Shown: piece after piece, positions 1 to 63,087 of the stretch
How positions within the stretch are numbered: position 1 is the first letter of the stretch
How the letters are laid out: the number at the start of each line of letters is the position of its first letter
NCBI GenBank assembly: GCA_002293825.1
Contig: DBDW01000008.1
Span: 9,430-73,429, forward strand
Direction of reading: 5' to 3'
DNA: 64,000 nucleotides
Origin: Candidatus Magasanikbacteria bacterium UBA922
Lineage (GTDB): Bacteria > Patescibacteriota > Patescibacteriia > Magasanikbacterales > UBA922
Made by a program: the position numbers and the translations under genes
The notes under the pieces: model-generated
Seen by the model: only the letters and a program-made list of their open reading frames with translations
Databases searched by the model: none
What the model was told of the DNA's origin: nothing

Positions 1-2167
1 CTACATCGCGACACCCTATAAGCTGAAACCTTTTATCGAACAACAAATCAATGCTCAGTACCCCTATGCACATATCGAAGAAATAACTGATTACAATATC
101 TTCACCGAACATAGCTCGATTGTGGGTGCGTACCTCAAAGCAAAAGATGCTGCAGCGCTCCCTTTCAAAACATACAAAAAAATGGATTCAGATCCCTTAT
201 CAGGTATTCTAAACACCATTGCACGTATTCATGAATCTGAAAGTTCCGCTGCAATCCAATTCGTTATCCGTCCTGCGCATAAAAAATGGAGGCGAGAAGG
301 GGTGCGTATCGTACGCGAGGTGCGCAAAGGAAAACGTTTTGAAGAAGTGATTGGAAATAAACGTGTATTTGGCGGATTCCTCAATTCATTTGGTGCTGAA
401 GCAAAGCGACAAGTACTGGATCTCAATTCAAAAGAAAAAACTAAAGAATCGTATCAGCTCTCGGCCCTCGAAGAAGAGATGCTCAAAGGAATTGAAGAAA
501 AACTTTCAAAAGGAGGGCTTGATGCTACCATACGCATCGTCTCAGCATCGGATAATCCCGAACTCGCCAGACTCAATCTCGACAATATTGTCAATGCGTT
601 TAGTCCATACAATTTATATCGCTATGGTAACTCACTCGAAGCGATTGTACCAAAAAATCCTCAAAGCATTATTCGTGCGTTCATCTATCGATCATTTCAT
701 GAAAAAAGACACAGTATATTCAATACTGAAGAAATGGCAGGATTATGGCATCTCCCTCTTCATTCTACAGAAGCGCCTAATATCAAATGGCTCCTCGCAC
801 GCAAAGCACCTCCTCCTCCCAATCTCCCTTCAGCAGGTATCGATCTCGGTAGAGTTCTCTATCGCGGACAAGAATATCCTGTAAAAATGAAAGATGAGGA
901 TCGACGTCGACATCTCTATGTAATTGGTAAATCAGGAAGTGGAAAATCTGTCTTTATCGAAAATCTCGCCGTACAAGACGTAATCAATGGAAAAGGACTT
1001 GCGGTAATTGACCCACACGGAGATTTTGCAGAATACGTACTCGAACATATTCCAAAAGAACGCGCTGATGATGTCATCATCTTCAACCCTTCTGATTTCG
1101 AACGTCCAATTGGGCTCAACATGCTTGAAGCAAAGAGTGAAGATGAAAAAGACTTTGCCGTGCAAGAAATGATTGCCATTTTCTACAAGCTCTTTCCACC
1201 TGAGATGATCGGACCCATGTTCGAACACAACATGCGAAACGTGATGCTGACACTCATGGCAGATCTCGAGAATCCAGGAACTATTATCGACATCCCCCGC
1301 ATGTTTACCGACGATGCATACGTAAAAAAATATTTGGTAAAACTAAAAGATCCGGTAGTCAGAGCATTCTGGGAAAAAGAAATGGCAAAGACAAGCGACT
1401 TCCATAAATCAGAGATGCTTGGATATCTGATCTCAAAAGTGGGTCGATTCGTCGAAAATGAAATGATGCGAAACATCATGGGTCAACAGAAATCAGGATT
1501 TGATTTCCGAGATATCATGGATAATCAAAAAATTCTTATCGTGAATCTTGCAAAAGGAAAAACAGGAGAAGTAAATGCAAAACTAATCGGTCTCATCATT
1601 GTAGCAAAACTTCAGATGGCTGCACTCGGGCGTGCTGATCTACCTGAAGATGAACGAAAAGATTTTTATCTCTATATCGATGAGTTCCAAAACTTTATCA
1701 CCGACTCAATCGCGACCATTCTCTCTGAAGCTCGAAAATATCGCCTGGATCTCATTATCGCTCACCAATACCTCGGACAATTGACTGATGATAAAGGAAA
1801 ATCTGATATCAAAGATGCAGTACTCGGTAATGCGGGTACCATGGCTGCCTTCCGTATTGGCCCTGAAGATTCCGAAATATTAGCAAAAGAATTTGCGCCT
1901 GTATTCGGCCCGTATGACCTCATGAATGTAGAAAAATTCACTGCAAATATCAAACTTCTCATAGACAACGAACCAACAAAACCATTCAACATGGCAACCT
2001 ATCCTCCCACCAGAGGAAACAAAGATCTTGGCAATGCCATACGAGAGCTCTCACGTCTCAAATATGGACGCGATCGACGAATCGTAGAAACCGAGATACT
2101 CGAACGTACCAAGCTGGGAGAAAGTAATGAACACAGCAAAACAGACATGATTGAGGCAAGTCTCTAA
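1..2167 (+). CDS. VirD4/TraG/TraD-like type IV coupling protein family P-loop ATPase. It is 5'-partial: the frame is open back to nt 2.
   Basis: Walker A VIGKSGSGKS and Walker B YIDEFQNF. The C-terminal IIAHQYLGQL motif is typical of the TrwB/VirD4 (TraG-D_C) family. A paralog of the 61102..63087 ORF. Confidence 0.7.
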   Translation, partial: YIATPYKLKPFIEQQINAQYPYAHIEEITDYNIFTEHSSIVGAYLKAKDAAALPFKTYKKMDSDPLSGILNTIARIHESESSAAIQFVIRPAHKKWRREGVRIVREVRKGKRFEEVIGNKRVFGGFLNSFGAEAKRQVLDLNSKEKTKESYQLSALEEEMLKGIEEKLSKGGLDATIRIVSASDNPELARLNLDNIVNAFSPYNLYRYGNSLEAIVPKNPQSIIRAFIYRSFHEKRHSIFNTEEMAGLWHLPLHSTEAPNIKWLLARKAPPPPNLPSAGIDLGRVLYRGQEYPVKMKDEDRRRHLYVIGKSGSGKSVFIENLAVQDVINGKGLAVIDPHGDFAEYVLEHIPKERADDVIIFNPSDFERPIGLNMLEAKSEDEKDFAVQEMIAIFYKLFPPEMIGPMFEHNMRNVMLTLMADLENPGTIIDIPRMFTDDAYVKKYLVKLKDPVVRAFWEKEMAKTSDFHKSEMLGYLISKVGRFVENEMMRNIMGQQKSGFDFRDIMDNQKILIVNLAKGKTGEVNAKLIGLIIVAKLQMAALGRADLPEDERKDFYLYIDEFQNFITDSIATILSEARKYRLDLIIAHQYLGQLTDDKGKSDIKDAVLGNAGTMAAFRIGPEDSEILAKEFAPVFGPYDLMNVEKFTANIKLLIDNEPTKPFNMATYPPTRGNKDLGNAIRELSRLKYGRDRRIVETEILERTKLGESNEHSKTDMIEASL

Positions 2168-8806: not shown

Positions 8807-10342
8807 ATGAAACAACCTTTTCTCAAATTTCCAGAAATCGTACAGATACTGATGGTATTTATCATACTGCATGTACTTGCATTTATCATATACGACTCCG
8901 CCGTTTTACGCATGATCACACTTGCGAGTGTCTTTGTGTCGACTATGTGGATCGCCCACAAATCACTCTTTACCGGACTTCTTATTGCATGTGCTGAAAT
9001 CTTTATCGGAGGACATGGCCATCTCATCAGTGCACCCATTCTCGGATTCCCTCTTTCTCTCCGTATCACTATTTTTCTTGCAATCATGGTAGTATGGATG
9101 ATACACATTCTGCGCAAAAAAATGCATCTCTCATACAAGCACCTTCCTTTATATCCATGGATACTCCTCATACTTGCACTTATACTCGGAGGAATTACCG
9201 GGCTCGCATATGGAAATAACCCTCTTTTTATTTTCGATGATGCAAATGGATATCTCATTCTCGGATATGCACTCCCATTCATCAGTATCGAATGGACCGA
9301 GGCACGCCGAGCCACACTTCTCCGCATACTCACCGCGGCTGCACTCTGGGTAAGTGTAGGCACACTCATCTTGTCATATATATTCACACACTCGATTGAA
9401 TCATATGCACGGCCACTCTACACATTTATCAGAGATACCCGTCTGGCAGAAATAACACTGCAATCCGTATCAAACTCTGAGGGAATTGTTACACACCCAT
9501 TTGCAGCGTATATTTTGGGTGAATCAGGATACTGGTACCGCATCTTTATGCAGTCACAATTTTTTGTCATAGCACTCACTTTTTTCCTTATCACATACAC
9601 AGTACTACATACTGAAAAAATTCGAATACTAAGCTCGACTTCACTACTCATTATTTTTTCAATAGCCACAATCTTTCTATCACAATCACGCAGTTTCTTT
9701 GTAGGATTATGTATCGCACTCACGGTGATAAGTGGATTTATATTCTACCTCAAACGAAAAGAATTTATAACACTGATAAAACAGTACATCTATCTCATTG
9801 GCATGAGCAGTATCGCACTTTTGCTCGTCTGGATATCTATCACACTTCCTATTCCGACGAAGCCATCGGTCGATACGGTATTATTCAGTAATACTTCAAT
9901 TGATACTGATCGATACGCGGCAGTATCTAGTCGCTGGTCACTACTCTCACCCATGATGATAGCTATCGATAACCGTCCGATTCTAGGCTCTGGATTTGGG
10001 ACCGTATTGACCTACAAAAGCGATGATCCGCGTATATATGATGAGACAGGCAGCACTGCGCTCACTACCTATCGATTTGAATGGGGGTATCACGATATAT
10101 GGATCAAAATGGGGCTAATCGGACTCGTAGCGTATGGCTCCTATCTGTACATGCTTTTTCGTGCAAGTGTCACTATGTGGAATCACACACCTCACTGGAT
10201 CATACTTGGGTTCGTAGGTACTACGCTTACTCTATTTGTAACACACATTTTTTCCCCTTACCTGAATCATCCGATTGGTCTCATCTGGCTTCTCTCCATA
10301 ATTCCATTTATATACACCACCCGATCACATACTATGGTATAA
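8807..10342 (+). CDS. polytopic membrane protein of the O-antigen ligase/Wzy_C-like family
   Basis: At least 10 TM segments. The C-terminal periplasmic loop has ...RPILGSGFG...H...G. spacing like Wzy_C. Confidence 0.5.
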   Translation: MKQPFLKFPEIVQILMVFIILHVLAFIIYDSAVLRMITLASVFVSTMWIAHKSLFTGLLIACAEIFIGGHGHLISAPILGFPLSLRITIFLAIMVVWMIHILRKKMHLSYKHLPLYPWILLILALILGGITGLAYGNNPLFIFDDANGYLILGYALPFISIEWTEARRATLLRILTAAALWVSVGTLILSYIFTHSIESYARPLYTFIRDTRLAEITLQSVSNSEGIVTHPFAAYILGESGYWYRIFMQSQFFVIALTFFLITYTVLHTEKIRILSSTSLLIIFSIATIFLSQSRSFFVGLCIALTVISGFIFYLKRKEFITLIKQYIYLIGMSSIALLLVWISITLPIPTKPSVDTVLFSNTSIDTDRYAAVSSRWSLLSPMMIAIDNRPILGSGFGTVLTYKSDDPRIYDETGSTALTTYRFEWGYHDIWIKMGLIGLVAYGSYLYMLFRASVTMWNHTPHWIILGFVGTTLTLFVTHIFSPYLNHPIGLIWLLSIIPFIYTTRSHTMV

Positions 10343-11393: not shown

Positions 11394-11744
11394 TTACAGC
11401 TCTCTTGAACGCATGCGTTGCCACCGCACCTCTTGATGAGGAGACACCAGGCAGACATCGGCAGCCTGTGAACTGACCACACCATCGACCGTGAAGATCC
11501 AGAAGAGGTCTTGCGTAGGATCTTCACGAAACCCTCTGATCTCAGTCACATAGACACGGCGCTGACCACCTACGTATCGTACCTCATAACTCACACGATC
11601 TTCATGCTTGAGCAGTCGATCGAGCACCGTCTCACGACTACCCAGATCGACATCACACCCGCTACTCATGAAATTAAGACTCGTGAGTGAAGTGGCAGCA
11701 ACGCACACATCTCTCAAAAATCTACGCCGATCACTCAAACTCAC
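11394..11744 (-). CDS. hypothetical small protein with a twin-arginine/lipoprotein-like signal. GC-rich foreign cassette A.
   Basis: GTG start preceded by AGGAGG. The N-terminus reads SDRRRFLRDVCVAATSLTSLNFMSSGC. GC3-rich codons, unlike neighbouring genes. Confidence 0.55.
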   Translation of the reverse strand: MSLSDRRRFLRDVCVAATSLTSLNFMSSGCDVDLGSRETVLDRLLKHEDRVSYEVRYVGGQRRVYVTEIRGFREDPTQDLFWIFTVDGVVSSQAADVCLVSPHQEVRWQRMRSREL

Positions 11745-11759
11745 GTTGAACCTCCTAAT

Positions 11760-11995
11760 TCAACACTGAAACAAAAACCCGCCAGGATTTCTGACGGATT
11801 TTGTTCGTTTAGACATCCGATACGGATCACAATAACAAGCACGGAATTGCGATACGTAATAGGATATCGAAAAAACATTTCTCCGTTCCTGCTCGGGACG
11901 TGAAAACTGATGATACGAACACTCTTGACCGGGCTTGGATACCGTTGCGGCACAGCGGAGGCTACCTGAAACAGGAATACCTCACTTCCAGAGTA
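11760..11995 (-). ncRNA. cobalamin-riboswitch-like leader with intrinsic attenuator (RS1)
   Basis: Minus-strand RNA contains GGAAGUGAGGUAUUCC...GCUGUGCCGCAACGGUA and CCCGAGCAGGAAC, both shared with the riboswitch at 15150. A terminator, CCGUCAGaaaucCUGGCGG followed by GUUUUUGUUU, sits just before the AGGAGG-GTG start. Confidence 0.4.
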
Positions 11996-12143
11996 TATTC
12001 ATAGATTTTGCATATAATGAACTGAGAGAAGTGTACCATGTATAAAAACACTCAGTCAAAAATCGCTAACTACTTTATTTTTTTACTGTTTTCTGGTAAC
12101 ATATCCACAACATAACATAATAAAAACACTACACATTACTCAC

Positions 12144-15099: not shown

Positions 15100-15127
15100 T
15101 TGACAAGTACACACTGCTTGATACAAT
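15100..15127 (+). promoter_or_regulatory. sigma-70 promoter for the riboswitch operon
   Basis: TTGACA, a 16-nt spacer, then TACAAT. Confidence 0.5.
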
Positions 15128-15149
15128 TCACGCATCATTTACAAACAAA

Positions 15150-15315
15150 CCATATTCTACTGGAACTGGGGTGAAATTCCCCGACTGTGCCGCAACGGTA
15201 AAAGTCCGATCTTGTAGAATATGCATTCTCCCGAGCAGGAACTAATACACCCTATCTTTGTGGTATCGGTGTATTATATATACACATTCCTCCGTTCAGG
15301 GGAATTTTTTTATCT
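15150..15315 (+). ncRNA. cobalamin riboswitch (compact variant) with terminator expression platform (RS2)
   Basis: GGAACUGGGGUGAAAUUCCCCGACUGUGCCGCAACGGUAAAAGUCCG matches the cobalamin core (GGUGaAAuUCC ... CCGCaACnGUaA). P1 is AUUCUAC/GUAGAAU. A terminator, AUUCCUC-cguuca-GGGGAAU followed by UUUUUUU, sits 5 nt before the ATG of the DUF4430 gene. Confidence 0.6.
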
Positions 15316-15320
15316 CAATT

Positions 15321-15920
15321 ATGCACCAAAAGCTTTTATACTTCCTTATCACGCTTTTTACCACTGCAACACTGGTAAGTGGATATTCAGTAATCAGAGA
15401 TCAAAAATCACCTGTCGAAAAAAATACAGTTTCTACACAATTAAATACTGACACTCCAGCACACACACAAAACATTGAATCAGATATTAAAAATTCCATT
15501 CACTATACCGAAACTACTCAAAAAAAAGAGCCAGAATCAGACATTGAGAACAGCGAGATCATAAATACTTCCACTACTCCAGACACAGAAACTCATCCTT
15601 ACGAAATATTTGAAGCGAAAGTGACGCTCGCGATCGATGGAAAAAATCTTCATATCCCCTATCACGATAGCATGACCGCTGAACGTGCGATGCGGGACGT
15701 TGCACAACGGTATCCTGAATCATTCCACTATGAAGGAATCGAATATGGCGGGGACCTCGGCACATTCGTGACGGCGATCAACGGTAAGAAAGAAAATCCA
15801 CAAGAAAAAATGCGCTGGATCCTGTATCTCAACGGAAGCCCATCACCCAAAGGAATATCAATACTCACACTTAATCCAGACGATATACTCTCATGGAACT
15901 ATGAAAAAGAAACTCTATAG
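15321..15920 (+). CDS. secreted DUF4430 (transcobalamin beta-domain-like) protein
   Basis: Signal/TM followed by a C-terminal domain: TLAIDGKNLHIPY...YEGIEYGGDLGTFVTAINGK...WILYLNG. This family is typically found downstream of B12 riboswitches. Confidence 0.6.
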   Translation: MHQKLLYFLITLFTTATLVSGYSVIRDQKSPVEKNTVSTQLNTDTPAHTQNIESDIKNSIHYTETTQKKEPESDIENSEIINTSTTPDTETHPYEIFEAKVTLAIDGKNLHIPYHDSMTAERAMRDVAQRYPESFHYEGIEYGGDLGTFVTAINGKKENPQEKMRWILYLNGSPSPKGISILTLNPDDILSWNYEKETL

Positions 15921-18603
15921 CTTGCTCGTAATCATTTCACTTCTTTTCTCAAATATCGGGTTTGTATACGCATCAGAAGAATCTATCGAAGAAACGACTG
16001 CCGAAACCACAGAACAAATTCCCCAAGAAAATACTCCAGACGAAGCCGTAGAATCACCAACCTCAACTCCTGATACAATACCTGAAGATCTTCCTACGCG
16101 TACAGCAAAGCTCAGAATTGAAACATCTAAAGGGGTCTTGTTTGAAGATTCCGTTACCTTTAGTGCATGCAAACCATATGAGACGTCTGAAGAATATACA
16201 CTCAACGCACAATGCCTCATTGAGCAAACGGACGGATTGGACGTAGTTTGGACTCCAGGTGATGACGCATGGCTTGATCGAATAAACCAATACGGCACAG
16301 ACCTTTCAACGGGCTTATACTGGGCATACTTTGCAAATCTCGAATATGGGTCAGTCGCGTTGAATCATCTACCGGTACATGAAGGAGATGAGGTGTTGCT
16401 TGTGTACGGGGTAAACCCGCTTAAGATAGAAGTAGACACTCTTTCACCCACCCTTTACACAACAACAACGGTACGTGTATATGAATTTGGTTTTGATGAG
16501 TTTTGGAGTCCTGTATGGCTTCCTTCAAATAGTAGTACTCTATTACTGGATGAAAATTCGATTGCCGTCTCTCAAAATGGAGAAGCAATTCTCACATTTG
16601 ATACGCTCGACACACAAACACTTCGAGCAATTAAGACAGGACTTGCCTCAAGCAATAGTATTGAAGTGTACCCCATATTGCCAACAACCAAAGCTCAACT
16701 ACATGTAGTGGCACACGGACAAACTCTTTTCCACGACACCATAGAGGTGACAGCATGCATACCTAACGAAACACAGACTGATAGATACACATTAAACGCA
16801 CGATGCTTAATTGATCAAGCAATCGGCATTACACCTACCTGGAGCACCTATGGTACTGATTCCTTTCTCGATTCAATCAATGGTATAGACAACAACTTCG
16901 AAACCGGACTGTATTGGGGATATTTTATCAATCATGAATATGCTTCAACTGCGCTCAATCAATATATTCTCACTGAAGGAGATGAACTATTGATTACATA
17001 CAATACTATCCCACTCAAACTCACATTTTCGACCACTACCCCTACCACCGGAGACACAGTCACCGTATCTCTATACGAATTTGGTTTCGATGAGTTTTGG
17101 AGTCCTGCATGGCTAGCAGCGACCGGGGCATTATTCACAATAAACGGCACACCTGTAACCACCACTGATCACACTTATACATTTATCCCTACGACCACGA
17201 TTCCATATCTCATTCGTGCAGAAAAAGAAGGATATATCACGATTGAAAAAACCTTGGTGGCAACCACGACCCAATCTACCGGTGAATCAACTGAAAATAA
17301 TGAAGGAACAGGAGGCAATGGCAGCTCATCAGGGGGAAATATCACCAATCCTGTACAGCGTATGATCCAATTCCTCGATAGCACACAAAATGCCGACGGA
17401 TCATTTGGTTCAACTCCATTCCTGACTGATTGGGCAGCACTTGCCTATGGATCGTGGACAGACTCTTCACAAGGATTGAACGCTCTCAAAAATTACCTCA
17501 TCAGTGACCCTACCCCACTAGATGGTCCAAACGCAACCACAAATTACGCGCGCCGTAGTATGGCACTCATGGCACTCGGTATCAATCCTTATTCTGGAAC
17601 ACCCACCAACTATATTGAAAAAATAATTTCAGGATTTGACGGGACTCAATTCGGAGATACCGGTCTCATAAATGATGATATATTCGCACTCGTCCCATTA
17701 GTACACGCAGGGTATTCCAATAATCCGATTGTGGCTTCTACCACAAAATTTATCATTGAAAATCAATCAGCAAACGGATCATTTGGCTCAATCGATCTGA
17801 CCGCGGCTGCAATCCAAGCACTCTCTCCATTCTCATCTGACGACAATGTGCGCACCGCACTCACACACGCACGAACATATCTCAAAAATGCACAACGCAT
17901 TGATGCTGGTTTTGGCGATGTATATGCGACAGGATGGGTTCTCCAAGCAATCAGCGCACTTGGTGAACACATCTCTGACTGGCTAGTCAACGGCATCTCG
18001 CCAGTATCATATCTTACCAACGCACAAGCATCTGATGGAGGATTATTGAGTAGTGATGTACGAGCTAATCGTATCTGGTCTACCAGCTACGCAATTCCTG
18101 GACTGCTTGGCACCCCTTGGAATAAAATTCTTGCATCATTTGAGGCTCCAGTCACCACACCTGAAACCAGTGGACAAGGCTCATCTACCGCTACTACTAC
18201 CTTCGACATCATTACCCCTACCACCACTGTGGATAGCACAACCACCTCGACACCCATTTCACCAGAGATTACTATTACTGAAAACAGTGTAGATACGCTC
18301 GAACAAGGTTCCACATACACATCTTCCTCAATGCCGACCCCCATTATCACCTCTCGACAAGTAGAAAGCCAGACATCAATCGTACGAGGAGAACGAATTA
18401 TCGAGGATGTAGAACCATCTACAACACCCTCATCAACACCTACGAACACCCCTGAATCAACACTCGCGCCTGATGCAGATGGTGCGCAAACACTATCACA
18501 CACACCTACTCCCATCACCCGATACATCTTCTGGTCTTCATTTACTGCACTACTACTCGCACTCGGATATAGCTGGTTTATCCGCCCCACTTCAAAAAAA
18601 TAA
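15901..18603 (+). CDS. large surface-anchored protein combining two DUF4430-like repeats with prenyltransferase/squalene-oxidase-like repeats
   Basis: Signal peptide. Two repeats of about 110 aa (VTFSAC..YTLNA(Q/R)CLI...G.YW.YF.N.EY...ALN). QxxDGSFGS-type alpha-toroid repeats. An S/T/P-rich stalk and a C-terminal TM anchor. The layout resembles a transcobalamin alpha-plus-beta architecture. Confidence 0.55.
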   Translation: MKKKLYSLLVIISLLFSNIGFVYASEESIEETTAETTEQIPQENTPDEAVESPTSTPDTIPEDLPTRTAKLRIETSKGVLFEDSVTFSACKPYETSEEYTLNAQCLIEQTDGLDVVWTPGDDAWLDRINQYGTDLSTGLYWAYFANLEYGSVALNHLPVHEGDEVLLVYGVNPLKIEVDTLSPTLYTTTTVRVYEFGFDEFWSPVWLPSNSSTLLLDENSIAVSQNGEAILTFDTLDTQTLRAIKTGLASSNSIEVYPILPTTKAQLHVVAHGQTLFHDTIEVTACIPNETQTDRYTLNARCLIDQAIGITPTWSTYGTDSFLDSINGIDNNFETGLYWGYFINHEYASTALNQYILTEGDELLITYNTIPLKLTFSTTTPTTGDTVTVSLYEFGFDEFWSPAWLAATGALFTINGTPVTTTDHTYTFIPTTTIPYLIRAEKEGYITIEKTLVATTTQSTGESTENNEGTGGNGSSSGGNITNPVQRMIQFLDSTQNADGSFGSTPFLTDWAALAYGSWTDSSQGLNALKNYLISDPTPLDGPNATTNYARRSMALMALGINPYSGTPTNYIEKIISGFDGTQFGDTGLINDDIFALVPLVHAGYSNNPIVASTTKFIIENQSANGSFGSIDLTAAAIQALSPFSSDDNVRTALTHARTYLKNAQRIDAGFGDVYATGWVLQAISALGEHISDWLVNGISPVSYLTNAQASDGGLLSSDVRANRIWSTSYAIPGLLGTPWNKILASFEAPVTTPETSGQGSSTATTTFDIITPTTTVDSTTTSTPISPEITITENSVDTLEQGSTYTSSSMPTPIITSRQVESQTSIVRGERIIEDVEPSTTPSSTPTNTPESTLAPDADGAQTLSHTPTPITRYIFWSSFTALLLALGYSWFIRPTSKK

Positions 18604-18645
18604 TACGATACCGTATACTTAGCACACCTTAACCACATTGTAACT

Positions 18646-19188
18646 ATGAAAACATACCTACTCGTCGTACTCGCTCTTGCTAGCTATGGAGTATTCGCCC
18701 GCCTTATACCACACGACCCTAATTTTGTACCTCTCACAGCACTTGCACTTGTTGGAGGGCTCTATCTCCCTCGCCAATGGGCATATATCGTCCCTATATC
18801 TGCAATGTTCGTAAGTGACATGTTTATTGGCTTTTACCACCCACTCATCATGCTCTCAGTGTATGGATGTCTTATCCTCGCTACATATCTCGGTACAAAA
18901 ACCCGATCCTCAAAACGCATCCTCTCTATTCTCGGTATCACTCTCACAAGCTCACTTGCGTTTTATCTTGTAACCAATGGTATGGTATGGGCTTTTGGTA
19001 CACTCTACCCAAAAACCATCACAGGACTCATGGAAAGCTACTATTTCGCACTTCCATTCTTCCGCAACAGTCTTCTCAGTGATTTTCTCTATACTGGAAT
19101 ACTTGTGGGAGGAATCGAGACTTTCACATGGTGGAGTAGACACCGCGCATCGAAAAGAGTCGAGGCACTTGCTCACCATAAATCATAG
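18646..19188 (+). CDS. small polytopic membrane protein, possibly an ECF-S/BtuM-like cobalamin transporter component
   Basis: 180 aa with about 5 TM helices, immediately downstream of the B12-binding-like genes. The assignment is by context only. Confidence 0.3.
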   Translation: MKTYLLVVLALASYGVFARLIPHDPNFVPLTALALVGGLYLPRQWAYIVPISAMFVSDMFIGFYHPLIMLSVYGCLILATYLGTKTRSSKRILSILGITLTSSLAFYLVTNGMVWAFGTLYPKTITGLMESYYFALPFFRNSLLSDFLYTGILVGGIETFTWWSRHRASKRVEALAHHKS

Positions 19189-19193
19189 TTTAC

Positions 19194-19233
19194 AAAAAAA
19201 CATCCTGATGTATAGTCAGGATGTTTTTTATTA
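19194..19233. terminator. intrinsic terminator, a repeated element identical to the one at 22775
   Basis: AAAAAAACATCCTGAT-gtatag-TCAGGATGTTTTTTATT. Confidence 0.6.
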
Positions 19234-20709
19234 TTACCCTCGTGGTTCAATTGCAGGTTCCTTCATGTATTCTGCCTCCTCACTCATGGGTTCGTATGGC
19301 ATAATCGTAATTGGCTCTTCACTTTGTTTTTCAAGTTCTGCCAACATTTCACGTGCCAACGGAATCACCACGGTCTCTTGCCACAATCCTTCTTTTTGTA
19401 CTGATTCAAAATCTTGTACCCGGGCTATAAGTGCTGGAACAAAAATTTCATTCGAGGTGCCTGTAGCTTCATCAAACTGCCATCGTCTCATATATCCCTC
19501 AGACACGTTTTCAAGTACCACATCAACGGTCTTGGTCGGCTCTGCATATACCGGCATACGACCCTTCGAAAGAATAGCACGGAGACGATTTTCATCTGTC
19601 TCACCTACATATGAGGATGCGCTAAATGTCTTTGTCATAATACCGTCCACACTAGTCACCCTCTTTTCTTGTGAATGTACATTCACGCGAATACCCATCG
19701 GCTCACCATATTCTTCATATACAGGTTTCCCATTGATAACCAATTGATACACTACTGTCTGAACATTTGGAATATAAAACAAACTCTTATCAGTCGCTGT
19801 TTCGTACCCTACTCTCCATCGACTATCTACTGTTCCAGGTGCGTGTGCACGCATATCAATTCCGTATTCAGCAAGAAATGAATCTGCAATTGATATTAAT
19901 TCCTCATCTTCGAGCACATCACTGATTGTGGGTTGCTGAAACGTTCGTACCGGCCATTTTGAATAATTTTCAAAAATTGAAACATACCCACCTACCATGT
20001 CGACCGTCACTACATATCCTCTATCTCGATCTTCTGCCAACGTAAAACTCTGCACATACGCATTATTCACTTTCCCAAGATCGAATAATCCCATTTTTAT
20101 TCTTTGTAACACACCTGCATACTGTGAACCTGCATCGTTATTTGACTCACGTTTCAATACTTCAACAGTTTCAGATAATGAGGGTATCGTACTCTCAAAT
20201 GAAAAGTTGTAATTGGTGTACACTGGTTCGTATAAAAGTGAGCTCATTTTTTCAACACCGCCTCCGAATTCCATAGTCTGTGCATCACCTCCACGTCCCT
20301 CATGTTGAGTATTTACTGAAACAGGCTGCAATGGACCAAACGCATTTGCTTCTGCTCGCGCAATACGCGTACCACCACTAAAACTGTTTTCAATGACACC
20401 TCCTGAAAGCGGGGAGCTAAAGTACACCACAGGGACCGCGATTGCAAGTGTTGCAATTGCTCCGCCGAGCGTGTGTACCCATGGTGATCTAAACCATGAA
20501 TAAGTTTCCTTTTTTGCCACGGCATGTTGAGTAGAAAATTTCTCAAGTACCCGCATTCTCAATTCTTTTGCAAAATTTTCATCATACTTTGTATCTGGTT
20601 TTTGTCTTGTCATAGCCTCGATAACTTGTGCGATTTCTATTTCATGTTTTTTCAATCCGGGGTCAATTGCATATAATTCCTGGAGTATATGCTGAATATT
20701 TTTTTCCAT
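19234..20709 (-). CDS. anti-sigma-factor-like single-pass membrane protein with a large extracytoplasmic domain
   Basis: A single TM segment (GGAIATLAIAVPVVYF) after a roughly 75-aa cytoplasmic N-terminus. Directly downstream of the ECF sigma gene. Confidence 0.45.
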   Translation of the reverse strand: MEKNIQHILQELYAIDPGLKKHEIEIAQVIEAMTRQKPDTKYDENFAKELRMRVLEKFSTQHAVAKKETYSWFRSPWVHTLGGAIATLAIAVPVVYFSSPLSGGVIENSFSGGTRIARAEANAFGPLQPVSVNTQHEGRGGDAQTMEFGGGVEKMSSLLYEPVYTNYNFSFESTIPSLSETVEVLKRESNNDAGSQYAGVLQRIKMGLFDLGKVNNAYVQSFTLAEDRDRGYVVTVDMVGGYVSIFENYSKWPVRTFQQPTISDVLEDEELISIADSFLAEYGIDMRAHAPGTVDSRWRVGYETATDKSLFYIPNVQTVVYQLVINGKPVYEEYGEPMGIRVNVHSQEKRVTSVDGIMTKTFSASSYVGETDENRLRAILSKGRMPVYAEPTKTVDVVLENVSEGYMRRWQFDEATGTSNEIFVPALIARVQDFESVQKEGLWQETVVIPLAREMLAELEKQSEEPITIMPYEPMSEEAEYMKEPAIEPRG

Positions 20710-20802
20710 AGTTTGATTATAATATTATTAGTACAACGTAGTGGATATCCATATACTTGTACTACGTTATTCGGAATACATAGTAACATCTGCTACAAGT
20801 AT

Positions 20803-21378
20803 TTATACCTTGCCACTCATTGCAAGAAACATACATACGTATATACCCATCGGTATCTGCGACCGAAGAGATTTTAATGCTCGAGATGTCGCCATTTTCA
20901 AACTTGCCTCACTTTTTCCCATGATTTCGGCAATCTCTTTATACGATAATTCATCCCATACTCTTAGTATAATGATTTCGCGTTCTTTTTCTGAAAGTTT
21001 TTGTAATGCACCTTGGACACGCATGAGCATTTCCTTGGTATCAAGTGAGGAGCCGAGGTCGACATGATCTGGTATATCGTATGCTTCTGGCATTGATGCA
21101 TATTTTTGTTTTTTTCGATATTCATCGACGAGCGTGTTTCGTGCAATACGATACAGCCACGACGATGTAGTTCCCTTTCCTGGATCAAAACTGGAGATAC
21201 GTTCAAGTGCTTTAGTAAATGTATCAGCCACAATATCTTCAGCACTCTGCTTATCTCGTGTTCTAAAAAAAGCGTAGTCGTATATTTTTTTCACAAATCC
21301 ATCATACACCACTCCAAACGCATTTCGATCTCCCTTGGCAGCTCGAAGCATGTACTCATCATAATTGATATGTTCTGA
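20803..21378 (-). CDS. ECF-type RNA polymerase sigma factor
   Basis: Sigma-70 region 2 (FVKKIYDYAFFRTRDKQSAEDIVADTF) and region 4 (LSEKEREIIILRVWDELSYKEIAEIMGKS). The start is probably MSEHINY. Confidence 0.75.
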   Translation of the reverse strand, partial: SEHINYDEYMLRAAKGDRNAFGVVYDGFVKKIYDYAFFRTRDKQSAEDIVADTFTKALERISSFDPGKGTTSSWLYRIARNTLVDEYRKKQKYASMPEAYDIPDHVDLGSSLDTKEMLMRVQGALQKLSEKEREIIILRVWDELSYKEIAEIMGKSEASLKMATSRALKSLRSQIPMGIYVCMFLAMSGKV

Positions 21379-21550
21379 CATAAACATCAGGTAATTAATA
21401 CAGCACGTACAGTATATCACATGCATATGCACAGATATCTATCCGTATGTATATTGTTCTTATTATGTAAAATTGTTATGCTATGTGTTCCCCTGGCCAT
21501 GCAGCATGCCGGGGTTCGACAGAAATGCTGCCCAAAGGAGAAATGGCCAC

Positions 21551-61101: not shown

Positions 61102-63087
61102 TTACGTAAGATCGTCAAAAGAAATTTCCTCATCTTCAAGTAAATCTTTTGGTGCTCGATCAATTGAAGGCGGAACACTCTTCGTCGACGGTGGAGTCAC
61201 TATCGGCGCATCGTTTGTTTTTTCTGCAACAACGGGAGGTGTCTGTGTTTGTGTCTGGAGATCTGCAAACGCAGTCGCAAACGGACGGTGCGATTGTGAT
61301 CCCGCTGGTTGAGCAGGTGTGTGAGAAATCACTCCTTCCCCACCCCCATTTCTCTTCTTGCGTTTTCGTCTACGTTTGCGCTTTCCTTCACCTGGCAATG
61401 ATAATTCAGACGTCCCCGCAGGCACACTCTGACTCACGACGTGCGGTACGCTAGAACGTGGAGATGTACTCGTATTCATCCGCGGTTGCTCAGCACGCTG
61501 GTCTTGATTCCGCGATGTCACCGCTGGTTCTCCCGCAGGCATTGTTTTTTCGACGACACGCTGAGCTGATTCAGCAACATTTTTTTGATGTTGCTCAAAC
61601 CGTTTCTGATTTTGTGATTTTGGTTCATCATTCTTTTTCTTCTGATCAAACACCACTCTACGATCTTCTTTTCTCACAGGAGCATTATTCATCTGCGTAC
61701 GCTGAGTAGTATTTTGAACTGGTGCAGATGATGTACTACGTACCCCTTCAATTCCCTGATCTTCCTCATCATTCGTAGATTGGCTCCATCGTGAAATTTT
61801 TTCCTCGACAACCTCTTTCTTTCGTCCATATCGTTCTTGTGACACACGCACCACTTTTTCCGATGATTTGGTAGAGCTTGCGAGTGGTGGTAGTGTCGCA
61901 GCGCTAAACGGCTGTGACGCAACACCGTCGATCATGAGTTTCAAAATAATCTGATATTTTGTCAGATTTACAATATCTTCTTCGGTAAATGTAGGAGTAA
62001 ATTCTTTGACAAGCATTTCAGCATCAGCACCACCAACACGGAAGGTGACAATCGTTCCTACGTTTCCAAATACTGCATTTGCAACCACTTCATCCAACTG
62101 TGCAACATATTGATGAGCCATAATCAGACTCAGCCGATATTTTCGAGCCTCAGACAAAATATTTGCAAATGACGGAGTTGCAAAATTCTGAAACTCATCA
62201 ACATAGAGGAAGAAATCTTTTCGATCGTTTTCTGGCGTATCGACACGTTCCATTGCAGCAAGTTGTAATTTGGTAATCAACATTCCCCCAAGCAATCGAC
62301 TATTATCTTCCCCGATACGTCCTTTTGATAAATTCATGATAAAAATTTTTCTCGTATCCATTATCTCACGCACATTGATCGTAGATTTCACCTGCGCCAC
62401 CATGTTTCTGATAATTGAAGCCGACAAAAATTGTCCGATTTTATTCTGAATTGGGGCTACTGCTTCTTTTGCATAGCGATCATCATAATTTGCAAATTCA
62501 TCACGCCAAAAGGCTTTAATTACTGGATCTTTGAGGTGGCGCACGACACGCTTACGATATTCCTTATCTGAAAGCAGACGATTGACACCGAGCAAAGTGG
62601 ATCCTGGATAGTCTAGAAGTGCGAGAAGTGTATTATTCAATATATATTCCATACGCGAACTCCACACATCAGGCCAAATCTTCTTGAACGTTCCCATGAG
62701 TCCGGCTGCGACTAGATGTTTCTGCTCTTCAGTTTTTACTTCAAGAATATTAAATCCAATCGGATTTTCCACATCGGCAGGATTGAGATATACCACATCA
62801 TTCAGACGCCATGACGGAATATGATCAATAATCTTTTCTGCAAAATCTCCATGTGGATCGACGAGCCCCACTCCATGTCCTGCATAAATATCCGACAACA
62901 CCATGTTTTCCATGATAGTGGTTTTTCCCATTCCTGTCTTCCCGATCACGTACATGTGACGTCTACGGTCATCTGTTTTAATTCCAAAACGCCGTACCTG
63001 ATTACGGAAATTGGTCTGTGCAAAAACACAGATATCTTGGGAAACTTTTGGAGCCTGACCTTTACTCGTGAGCTGTGGACTGGGCAT
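61102..63087 (-). CDS. VirD4/TraG/TraD-like coupling-protein family ATPase with a long low-complexity C-terminal tail
   Basis: HMYVIGKTGMGKTT Walker A, YVDEFQNF, and LIMAHQYVAQL. A paralog of the ORF at 1..2167. The last roughly 250 aa are Q/P/E/K/R-rich. Confidence 0.7.
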   Translation of the reverse strand: MPSPQLTSKGQAPKVSQDICVFAQTNFRNQVRRFGIKTDDRRRHMYVIGKTGMGKTTIMENMVLSDIYAGHGVGLVDPHGDFAEKIIDHIPSWRLNDVVYLNPADVENPIGFNILEVKTEEQKHLVAAGLMGTFKKIWPDVWSSRMEYILNNTLLALLDYPGSTLLGVNRLLSDKEYRKRVVRHLKDPVIKAFWRDEFANYDDRYAKEAVAPIQNKIGQFLSASIIRNMVAQVKSTINVREIMDTRKIFIMNLSKGRIGEDNSRLLGGMLITKLQLAAMERVDTPENDRKDFFLYVDEFQNFATPSFANILSEARKYRLSLIMAHQYVAQLDEVVANAVFGNVGTIVTFRVGGADAEMLVKEFTPTFTEEDIVNLTKYQIILKLMIDGVASQPFSAATLPPLASSTKSSEKVVRVSQERYGRKKEVVEEKISRWSQSTNDEEDQGIEGVRSTSSAPVQNTTQRTQMNNAPVRKEDRRVVFDQKKKNDEPKSQNQKRFEQHQKNVAESAQRVVEKTMPAGEPAVTSRNQDQRAEQPRMNTSTSPRSSVPHVVSQSVPAGTSELSLPGEGKRKRRRKRKKRNGGGEGVISHTPAQPAGSQSHRPFATAFADLQTQTQTPPVVAEKTNDAPIVTPPSTKSVPPSIDRAPKDLLEDEEISFDDLT

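Follow-up and report, generated by a model that had tools for sequence, protein, structure and literature searches.

In Gram-positive bacteria that lack B12 synthesis, surface proteins combining SLBB and alpha/alpha-toroid domains have been predicted to scavenge vitamin B12 (Burroughs, Balaji, Iyer, Aravind 2007, PMC1796856), and two membrane proteins with the fold of energy-coupling factor (ECF) S-components, CbrT and BtuM, have been shown experimentally to transport it (PMC5997447, PMC6072759). In many bacteria that depend on B12, the membrane protein responsible for its import has yet to be identified (PMC6072759). Here we describe a three-gene operon in a stretch of 64,000 nucleotides (64 kb) of contig DBDW01000008.1 from Candidatus Magasanikbacteria bacterium UBA922, a member of the Patescibacteriota; the whole of this stretch is called the window below. 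The operon follows a compact cobalamin riboswitch and encodes two predicted surface proteins with SLBB (DUF4430) domains, the second of which also carries a toroid, and a membrane protein of the uncharacterised family DUF6580. We consider it quite probable that this is a corrinoid (vitamin B12) acquisition operon that B12 switches off through the riboswitch, and a comparison across about 80 species points to DUF6580 as an unrecognised B12 importer. The operon comprises the following features, all on the plus strand (ORF, open reading frame):

15100..15127, plus strand: sigma-70-like promoter, TTGACA-16-TGaTACAAT (extended -10), with 11 of 12 consensus positions and the TG.
15150..15224, plus strand: compact cobalamin riboswitch aptamer, best matched by RF01689 (Rfam and our covariance model R1).
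15225..15311, plus strand: expression platform, a P13-like regulatory helix read as an intrinsic terminator (terminator scan, RNAalifold and minimum free energy fold).
15321..15920, plus strand: ORF1, 199 residues, with a hydrophobic N-terminus (signal or anchor), then ~80 residues of polar linker, and DUF4430 at the C-terminus.
15901..18603, plus strand: ORF2, 900 residues, with two units of DUF4430 plus beta-sandwich, an alpha/alpha toroid, a stalk and a C-terminal anchor.
18646..19188, plus strand: ORF3, 180 residues, a DUF6580 protein with an ECF S-component-like fold, candidate corrinoid translocator.

An identical locus is present on several public metagenome contigs, and gene calls published for these have the same three products (199, 900 and 180 residues). 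The names carried by homologues likewise point to Patescibacteria, near Candidatus Magasanikbacteria. ORF1 and ORF2 overlap by 20 nucleotides (15880..15903).

An Rfam scan of the window at gathering thresholds returned one riboswitch and four tRNAs. The riboswitch, RF01689 (the adenosylcobalamin class AdoCbl-II, clan CL00101), matches 15152..15222 (+) with 44.8 bits, the gathering score being 36.5 (E = 1.5e-7 over the whole 64 kb, both strands and 4227 families), and no other cobalamin riboswitch reaches gathering level within the window. The alignment contains the conserved core GGUGAAAUUCC...CUGUGCCGCAACGGUAA, and also GGUGAAAUUCC followed by CUGUGCCGCAACGGUAAAAGUCCGA. The second helix of the RF01689 model (5 pairs) is absent and is replaced by a continuous 10-bp P1, CAUAUUCUAC / GUAGAAUAUG; the aptamer has neither P2 nor the P6 extension, and folds stably when taken alone (-27.6 kcal/mol). 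Directly after P1 the expression platform opens with an invariant 5' strand, UCCCGAGCAGGAAC (15229..15242), which is followed by a variable hairpin (~15243..15275), enclosed by the regulatory helix and showing compensatory changes among related leaders, and then by the 3' strand of the helix, UUCCUCCGUUCAGGGGAAU, and U7 (15305..15311). The terminator scan placed a terminator-like hairpin at 15286..15305 with a T7 run at 15305..15311, and the RNAalifold consensus pairs positions 142-154 with 204-219. In the minimum free energy fold of the platform (-26.8 kcal/mol), AUUCUCCCGAGCAGGAA pairs with UUCCUCCGUUCAGGGGAAU around the variable hairpin in a long interrupted stem that abuts the U run; we therefore read the platform as an intrinsic terminator.

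The leader is kept from promoter to terminator in four species, those of the window and of the related loci L007, L008 and L009, and both promoter hexamers are invariant in the three orthologous leaders. The covariance model R1 was built from these four aptamers and used to search 1.1 Mb of related loci, in which it found 41 matches. In their alignment 92.7% of cells form pairs (36-49% with the 3' partners slid), changes on both sides occur in 16 of 21 pairs, and none of 500 shuffles equalled the observed covariation score; as the alignment was fitted to the model these figures favour the structure, but the margin is large all the same. The predicted helices of the aptamer are supported by covariation across the 41 related aptamers. 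An 11-mer, CCCGAGCAGGA, lies 3' of 25 of the 32 aptamer matches with E <= 1e-3 in divergent loci (L007 to L065) and almost nowhere else; it corresponds to the 5' strand of the 3' regulatory hairpin in the RF01482 model, as seen in the Rfam alignment of an RF01482-type relative. As this strand does not change even between distant Patescibacteria, in contrast to its variable 3' partner, a second contact or an alternative pairing is suggested. An initial annotation, made from the letters of the window, had recognised a cobalamin riboswitch core in this leader, which both the RF01689 match, the only one to a cobalamin class at gathering level in the window, and the covariation bear out; it had put the terminator 5 nucleotides from the start codon, whereas the T run ends 9 nucleotides before the ORF1 ATG (15321).

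ORF3 matches DUF6580 (PF20221) with 146.7 bits against a cut-off of 27 (E 9e-43), its residues 4-160 covering profile positions 6-155 of 162. Its AlphaFold2 (AF2) model has a predicted local distance difference test (pLDDT) score of 93 and six to seven helices. The best solved fold is that of BtuM with hydroxocobalamin (8OVV; TM-score 0.72/0.74, root-mean-square deviation (rmsd) 3.1 Å over 175 columns), followed by the ECF S-components PanT, RibU, ThiT and FolT. At the sequence level, a 27-sequence DUF6580 profile found a single significant protein in the PDB, 6FNP_A (E 9e-5), which is CbrT, the B12-specific S-component of Lactobacillus delbrueckii (Santos et al. 2018, PMC5997447), and DUF6580 and CbrT have the motifs R...PN..P and S-D/N in common. 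The CbrT fragment matches PF12822 (ECF_trnsprt) and not DUF6580, ORF3 matches PF20221 only, and HMMER found no sequence similarity between DUF6580 and BtuM, whose defining cobalt ligand is the invariant Cys80 (PMC6072759). In an alignment of 107 DUF6580 sequences, R19, H23, N26, D58, T110, N111, W115, Y121, R140 and N141 are at least 97% conserved. By its sequence ORF3 is therefore placed outside the BtuM family, as there is no conserved Cys, and outside the Pfam family of CbrT, in the separate family DUF6580.

With one genome scanned per species, DUF6580 is present in at least 548 species; the family has about 6,900 clusters at 50% identity. Gene context was counted in the best 80 species-representative loci, almost all from Patescibacteria with a few from Bacteroidia and Ignavibacteria, and gene orders were called with hidden Markov models built from the domains of the window (S, SLBB gene; T, toroid gene; D, DUF6580 gene):

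S-D: 32 loci.
S-T-D: 29 loci.
S-T-S-D: 3 loci.
S-T-T-D, the toroid being split over two ORFs: 1 locus.
T-S-D: 1 locus.
T-D: 5 loci; of six, a contig end cuts five.
D alone: 9 loci.

In 71 of the 80 loci, the gene immediately upstream of DUF6580, or of the toroid gene, encodes an SLBB protein. In the toroid protein itself the number of N-terminal SLBB units varies from zero to two; if there are none, the separate SLBB protein alone is left as a candidate for the beta partner. At Rfam gathering level, 17 of 45 loci scanned have a cobalamin riboswitch immediately upstream and on the same strand (RF01689 in six, RF01482 in six and RF00174 in five). When Rfam and R1 are used together, one precedes the module in at least 34 of the 69 loci with at least 300 nucleotides of upstream sequence: 21 of 26 S-T-D, 3 of 3 S-T-S-D, 6 of 28 S-D and 3 of 9 D-only loci. 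Three-gene modules (S-T-D and S-T-S-D) thus have a riboswitch in 24 of 29 cases. The three D-only positives are diderms in which the riboswitch (RF00174) is followed by a TonB-dependent receptor and DUF6580; in these Bacteroidia and Ignavibacteria loci (L059 1121..4010, L076 4673..8513, L078 267..3405) the arrangement has no SLBB gene.

In a Pfam census of 138 flanking ORFs, ribonucleotide reductase with TSCPD occurs 7 times, BtuR/CobO 5 times and PduO-type adenosyltransferase 3 times, ABC_tran only twice and CbiQ/EcfT not at all; by NCBIfam the reductases are NrdJ (564-599 bits; cut-off 400), and two of the neighbours are PduO. The locus L065 (5020..9142) reads NrdJ, riboswitch, SLBB, DUF6580, PduO and then an aptamer-like match (9082..9142), and NrdJ is also directly upstream of SLBB-DUF6580 in L049, L054, L058, L060 and L062. 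A natural fusion, P0260 (337 residues, a 50%-identity representative), joins DUF6580 (residues 5-165) through an extra transmembrane helix (~190-212) to DUF4430 (255-329). As the C-terminus of an S-component faces inward, this helix would be needed to put the SLBB domain outside, and the predicted fusion is a Rosetta-stone link between the putative transporter and the SLBB binder. In another sequence, P0200, an apparent toroid C-terminus is joined to DUF6580, which may be a gene-calling artefact. No ECF module (CbiQ/EcfT, ECF-type ATPase) adjoins any of 77 modules or lies within the window; the ABC ATPases found near modules (L077) were considered as ECF modules and set aside, being of ABC-2 and exporter types and rare near modules. 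The association of DUF6580 with SLBB genes, cobalamin riboswitches, BtuB-like receptors, NrdJ and adenosyltransferases is strong and repeated. Many of the loci, among them L007, L008, L009 and L010, are titled 'uncultured Gammaproteobacteria bacterium'; they are syntenic with Magasanikbacteria loci, with DUF6580 proteins 65-77% identical, and their titles are probably mislabelled.

Turning to the two surface proteins, ORF1 matches DUF4430 (PF14478) with 36 bits (cut-off 23.8, E 9.4e-9) at residues 136-196, and ORF2 with 44.7 bits against the same cut-off. ORF2 begins with a signal peptide (residues 1-24) and an acidic linker, continues with SLBB-a (~66-175), beta-sandwich-a (175-256), SLBB-b (~262-372), beta-sandwich-b (373-452), a disordered Gly/Ser linker (458-480), the toroid (485-750) and a Ser/Thr/Pro-rich stalk of ~120 residues (~750-868), and ends with a transmembrane anchor and the basic tail RPTSKK; it has no LPXTG motif. 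The SLBB and beta-sandwich units are a tandem duplication of ~190 residues (63-255 versus 258-447). The AF2 model of residues 62-765, made with 45 sequences, has a mean pLDDT of 91. Both SLBB units are predicted to consist of two strands, a helix (42-47 / 239-244), a hairpin and three strands, and a beta-hairpin that follows the helix is the mark of the transcobalamin-like SLBB clade (Burroughs et al. 2007, PMC1796856); as modelled, both units thus have the fold of that clade. The ORF2 family profile matches the beta domains of haptocorrin (4KKI, E 6e-5) and intrinsic factor, as well as the bacterial DUF4430 structure 3U7Z. Single-sequence phmmer searches of the three operon proteins against the PDB gave no matches; only profiles reach CbrT and the haptocorrin and intrinsic-factor beta domains.

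The toroid is less specific. As low-complexity words dominated the homologue search with full-length ORF2 (11 matches), it was repeated with the toroid alone. The strongest matches of the toroid profile are squalene-hopene cyclases (E 6e-13), and with the ORF2 model Foldseek returned terpene cyclases at E 3.5e-6 and transcobalamin at E 1-2e-5 (TM-score 0.40-0.43). Proteins of the alpha2-macroglobulin (TED) and TEP type rank first in that search; homology to them was rejected, since an rmsd of 20-39 Å reflects a shared mix of beta-sandwich and toroid. Cobalamin_bind (PF01122) is found in 19 of 45 ORF2 homologues at E <= 1e-3 (best 5.8e-8), and SQHop_cyclase_C in 41 of the 45; in ORF2 itself the latter scores 22-23 bits against a cut-off of 26.1, over the C-terminal third. 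DxDD is the catalytic acid motif of class II terpene cyclases, and membership of the terpene cyclases and prenyltransferases was judged by this motif together with the thresholds of PF13243 and PF00432. The ORF2 stretch aligned to the cyclase 'vDdTA' (DxDD) reads SIDLTA, with a single Asp, and by the Pfam threshold the predicted toroid is not a cyclase. Because the Pfam, profile and Foldseek matches are not specific to transcobalamin, the toroid is a generic six-hairpin toroid, and its assignment to B12 comes from fusion and context rather than from specific transcobalamin similarity.

Much of what the initial annotation had proposed for the proteins agrees with these results: ORF1 as a transcobalamin-like DUF4430 protein, ORF2 as a surface-anchored protein of 900 residues with two DUF4430-like repeats and a toroid (as seen in Pfam, the internal repeat and the AF2 model), and a structural likeness of ORF2 to transcobalamin. 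Its idea of a full transcobalamin alpha-plus-beta architecture holds as far as the presence of toroid and SLBB units, but the order is beta before alpha and the toroid is not closest to transcobalamin. ORF3 had been described as a protein of roughly five transmembrane segments, fewer than the helices modelled here; its assignment to the ECF-S/BtuM type is upheld by the S-component fold, the BtuM structure as best match and the CbrT profile match, although the family, DUF6580, is a separate one.

In the mechanism that we propose, transcription would start at ~15134 and the aptamer at 15150..15224 would sense cobalamin; once occupied, it would let the P13-like helix and U7 terminate transcription before the ATG at 15321, so that ORF1, ORF2 and ORF3 would be made when B12 is scarce. 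ORF1 would be a membrane-tethered, transcobalamin-beta-like SLBB domain and ORF2 a stalked surface protein with two SLBB units and a toroid. Going by domain homology and context, these SLBB and toroid proteins may bind corrinoids at the cell surface, catching them outside the cell, with the ligand gripped between toroid and SLBB domain, in the manner of the alpha and beta parts of transcobalamin. DUF6580 would then receive the ligand from the SLBB proteins and carry it across the membrane, most likely alone, like BtuM. In relatives, the imported corrinoid would be adenosylated by BtuR or PduO and would serve the B12-dependent ribonucleotide reductase NrdJ. A small SLBB lipoprotein gene at 11394..11744 (-), behind a divergent riboswitch-like leader, would probably belong to the same regulon. 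That DUF6580 translocates the corrinoid is suggested by the comparative evidence; that it does so alone, BtuM-like, rather than with an ECF ATPase module, is the least certain step and is only slightly favoured, because of the diderm context, the structural match to BtuM and the lack of an ECF module in cis. More tentatively, and at a little under an even chance, DUF6580 may be a third family of small S-component-like B12 permeases, free of Cys and of an ECF ATPase and having a His/Asp/Arg pocket, which in Patescibacteria takes its ligand directly from tethered SLBB proteins with or without a toroid. If so, the DUF6580-SLBB pair would be the main B12 route of these reduced-genome bacteria, and their DNA synthesis through NrdJ would depend on corrinoids from hosts or neighbours.

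Several observations weigh against parts of this mechanism. Neither a P1-based antiterminator nor a kissing-loop partner for L5 (GCC), including an L5-L13 contact, could be found in the leader with convincing or conserved complementarity, and we infer the step from ligand binding to termination for this reason. The predicted template modelling score of the ORF2 model is 0.56, so that the folds of its domains can be relied on but not how these are placed relative to each other, and no particular docking of SLBB on toroid is supported. Cobalamin_bind scores 20.4-21.5 bits in ORF2 of the window, below its cut-off of 25 and over 44 residues only, in the C-terminal third, and the toroids of terpene cyclases and TED proteins are at least as similar to that of ORF2 as the transcobalamin toroid is. 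About half of the loci, mostly S-D, have no detectable riboswitch, and within the window there is no B12-dependent enzyme or adenosyltransferase. For ORF3, no column of the 107-sequence alignment contains Cys in more than 21% of sequences, so that the Cys of BtuM has no counterpart; the sole link of DUF6580 at the sequence level is to CbrT, which needs an ECF module; and the absence of such a module in cis is no proof of independence, as genes for group II S-components are typically unlinked from it (PMC5997447).

These last points lead to the nearest alternative, in which the operon also serves B12 uptake but ORF3 is a group II ECF S-component that is driven by ATP through a shared EcfA-EcfA'-EcfT encoded elsewhere. 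We rate this as a serious possibility that falls somewhat short of an even chance. The DUF6580 profile match to CbrT (6FNP_A, E 9e-5) speaks for it, as do one DUF6580 homologue that also has a PF12822 match, another with a weak ECF-ribofla_trS match, and the inability of solitary CbrT to transport (PMC5997447), and the unlinked position of group II genes would fit. Yet Pfam puts CbrT in PF12822 and not in DUF6580, BtuM is the best structural match of ORF3, CbiQ/EcfT and ECF-type ATPases are missing both beside the 77 modules and in the 64-kb window, and in diderms DUF6580 directly follows a BtuB-like receptor, as does the ECF-independent BtuM (PMC6072759).

The ligand and the toroid protein allow two further readings. 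The module might import heme or another tetrapyrrole, or a corrinoid precursor such as cobinamide, instead of complete cobalamin: in a preprint, heme was modelled into the transcobalamin-like alpha and beta proteins of L. sakei lsa1836-1840 (10.1101/864751), CbrT transports cobinamide as well (PMC5997447), and Burroughs et al. allow for 'B12 or its precursors' (PMC1796856). With the operon under cobalamin riboswitch control, relatives flanked by NrdJ and corrinoid adenosyltransferases and not by heme enzymes, and no cobinamide-salvage genes in the window, we regard this as improbable. It would be very improbable that ORF2 is a B12-unrelated surface enzyme or adhesin, of terpene-cyclase, prenyltransferase or alpha2-macroglobulin type, that is merely co-transcribed. 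This idea draws on the squalene-hopene cyclases at the head of the toroid profile matches (E 6e-13), SQHop_cyclase_C in 41 of 45 homologues, the first rank of alpha2-macroglobulin and TEP proteins in Foldseek for the whole ORF2 model, and the NCBI label 'terpene cyclase/mutase family' on some homologues. ORF2 is predicted to be extracellular by its signal peptide, stalk and C-terminal anchor, though; its DxDD-aligned segment, S-I-D-L-T-A, has a single Asp; the alpha2-macroglobulin matches, at an rmsd of 20-39 Å, show merely the common mix of beta-sandwich and toroid; and the toroid is fused to SLBB or stands beside an SLBB gene, behind a cobalamin riboswitch in 24 of 29 three-gene modules. Corrinoid acquisition under B12 control is the reading that we prefer.

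A second candidate unit lies on the minus strand of the window:

11998..11917, minus strand: candidate divergent cobalamin riboswitch aptamer (R1), core CUGUGCCGCAACGGUA, with a hairpin replacing the T-loop.
11394..11744, minus strand: DUF4430 (SLBB) protein of 116 residues (PF14478), its N-terminus with a Tat-like RRRF and a lipobox-like ...SSGC.

R1 scores the first element at 24.5 bits (E 9e-7 in a search of 501 nucleotides), and Rfam at E <= 1 gives no cobalamin match for it. The motif CCCGAGCAGGAAC, which like the core is shared with the operon leader, follows the aptamer at 11898..11885, a terminator-like hairpin with U5 lies at 11797..11773, and in L007 the outer P1 of the orthologous element is kept by compensatory changes. 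A Phe_leader match in the same leader (11770..11891 -, 36.9 bits against 55) was discarded as sub-threshold and corresponds to the terminator. The 116-residue protein matches PF14478 with 32.8 bits (cut-off 23.8, E 9.7e-8), and its gene has the Shine-Dalgarno sequence AGGAGG and a GTG start (11744); this strong AGGAGG differs from the operon, none of whose three genes is preceded by a recognisable Shine-Dalgarno sequence (including 18604..18648). From its sequence, this is a probable third B12-binding surface lipoprotein within the operon's regulon, and if the minus-strand element is real the window would hold two B12-controlled units.

Downstream of the operon and convergent with it, 19234..21432 (-) holds a sigma-70 gene (r2/r4, of the extracytoplasmic function type) followed by a gene for a 491-residue protein with one transmembrane helix and no Pfam match, and the two look like a sigma/anti-sigma pair. 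The 491-residue gene (19234..20709) was considered as a part of the module and rejected: it stands behind the sigma factor gene, and nothing in it relates to B12. In many related loci the module is followed by a convergent gene of about this size (~480 residues). ATPases resembling TrwB/TraG-type coupling proteins are found near the two ends of the window, at 122..2167 and 61102..63087.

The scavenging of B12 at the surface by SLBB and toroid proteins was already published in 2007 (PMC1796856), and the parts of the module are of known kinds. The link to DUF6580 and the prevalence of the module in Patescibacteria appear to be new. In the literature, of which our coverage is incomplete, we did not find described DUF6580 as the membrane partner, a near-universal two- or three-gene module in Patescibacteria, or the riboswitch variant, and nothing was found on DUF6580/PF20221, on cobalamin riboswitches of Patescibacteria or on a B12-dependent ribonucleotide reductase in the candidate phyla radiation. 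Through the comparative evidence, the DUF6580 family gains a testable role in B12 transport; its partners in Patescibacteria are putative capture proteins of transcobalamin type, related to the B12 carriers of mammals. This offers a concrete hypothesis of how ultra-small, biosynthetically poor bacteria obtain the cofactor of their ribonucleotide reductase, in which case their replication would depend on cobamides made by other organisms. A compact riboswitch variant with an invariant regulatory strand was also obtained.

Compared with described riboswitches, the window aptamer has the four-way-junction core and helices of the compact RF01689 type (formerly AdoCbl-variant, env8-type), above threshold, and the hairpin that lies 3' of its P1 has its counterpart in the RF01482 regulatory hairpin. 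It differs in lacking the P2 of the RF01689 model, its P1 being extended to 10 bp, and its regulatory helix is an intrinsic terminator rather than a sequestor of the ribosome-binding site.

Among transporters, CbrT of L. delbrueckii is a small S-component that binds and transports cobalamin and is the one detected by the DUF6580 profile. Its cluster, nrdJ-cbrS-cbrT-pduO, follows the same logic as the NrdJ, riboswitch, SLBB, DUF6580, PduO order of L065; we found no description of the cbrS gene in the literature. CbrT strictly needs an ECF module (PMC5997447), whereas the neighbourhoods of DUF6580 genes show none. BtuM, from Thiobacillus denitrificans (6FFV, 8OVV; Rempel et al. 2018, PMC6072759), transports B12 as a solitary S-component-like protein. 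In diderms its gene is found together with btuB, and DUF6580, placed after a TonB-dependent (BtuB-like) receptor in L059, L076 and L078, holds the position that BtuM has beside BtuB. BtuM has the invariant Cys80, in contrast to DUF6580, which has no conserved Cys and another set of conserved polar residues.

The operons of Burroughs et al. (for example L. sakei lsa1836-1840) resemble that of the window in their secreted or anchored SLBB domains fused to, or encoded beside, a toroid that is sometimes C-terminal, in a second SLBB paralogue within the operon, and in immunoglobulin-like beta-sandwich spacers. The Firmicutes operons carry genes for a CbiO-like ATPase and a CbiQ-like protein (ECF-type), whereas the Patescibacteria module has none in cis and ends with DUF6580; their proteins use an LPXTG sortase anchor, and ORF2 a C-terminal transmembrane helix. 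Like ORF2, the mammalian carriers transcobalamin, intrinsic factor and haptocorrin (PF01122 plus PF14478) combine a toroid with an SLBB beta-grasp domain, the two halves sandwiching B12. In the mammalian carriers an N-terminal alpha6/alpha6 toroid is followed by the beta domain, whereas ORF2 has the reversed order of SLBB, beta-sandwich, SLBB, beta-sandwich and toroid, with its SLBB unit duplicated, beta-sandwich spacers between, and the whole anchored to the membrane on a stalk. Unlike in these single-chain carriers, the separate, SLBB-only ORF1 may supply the beta half.

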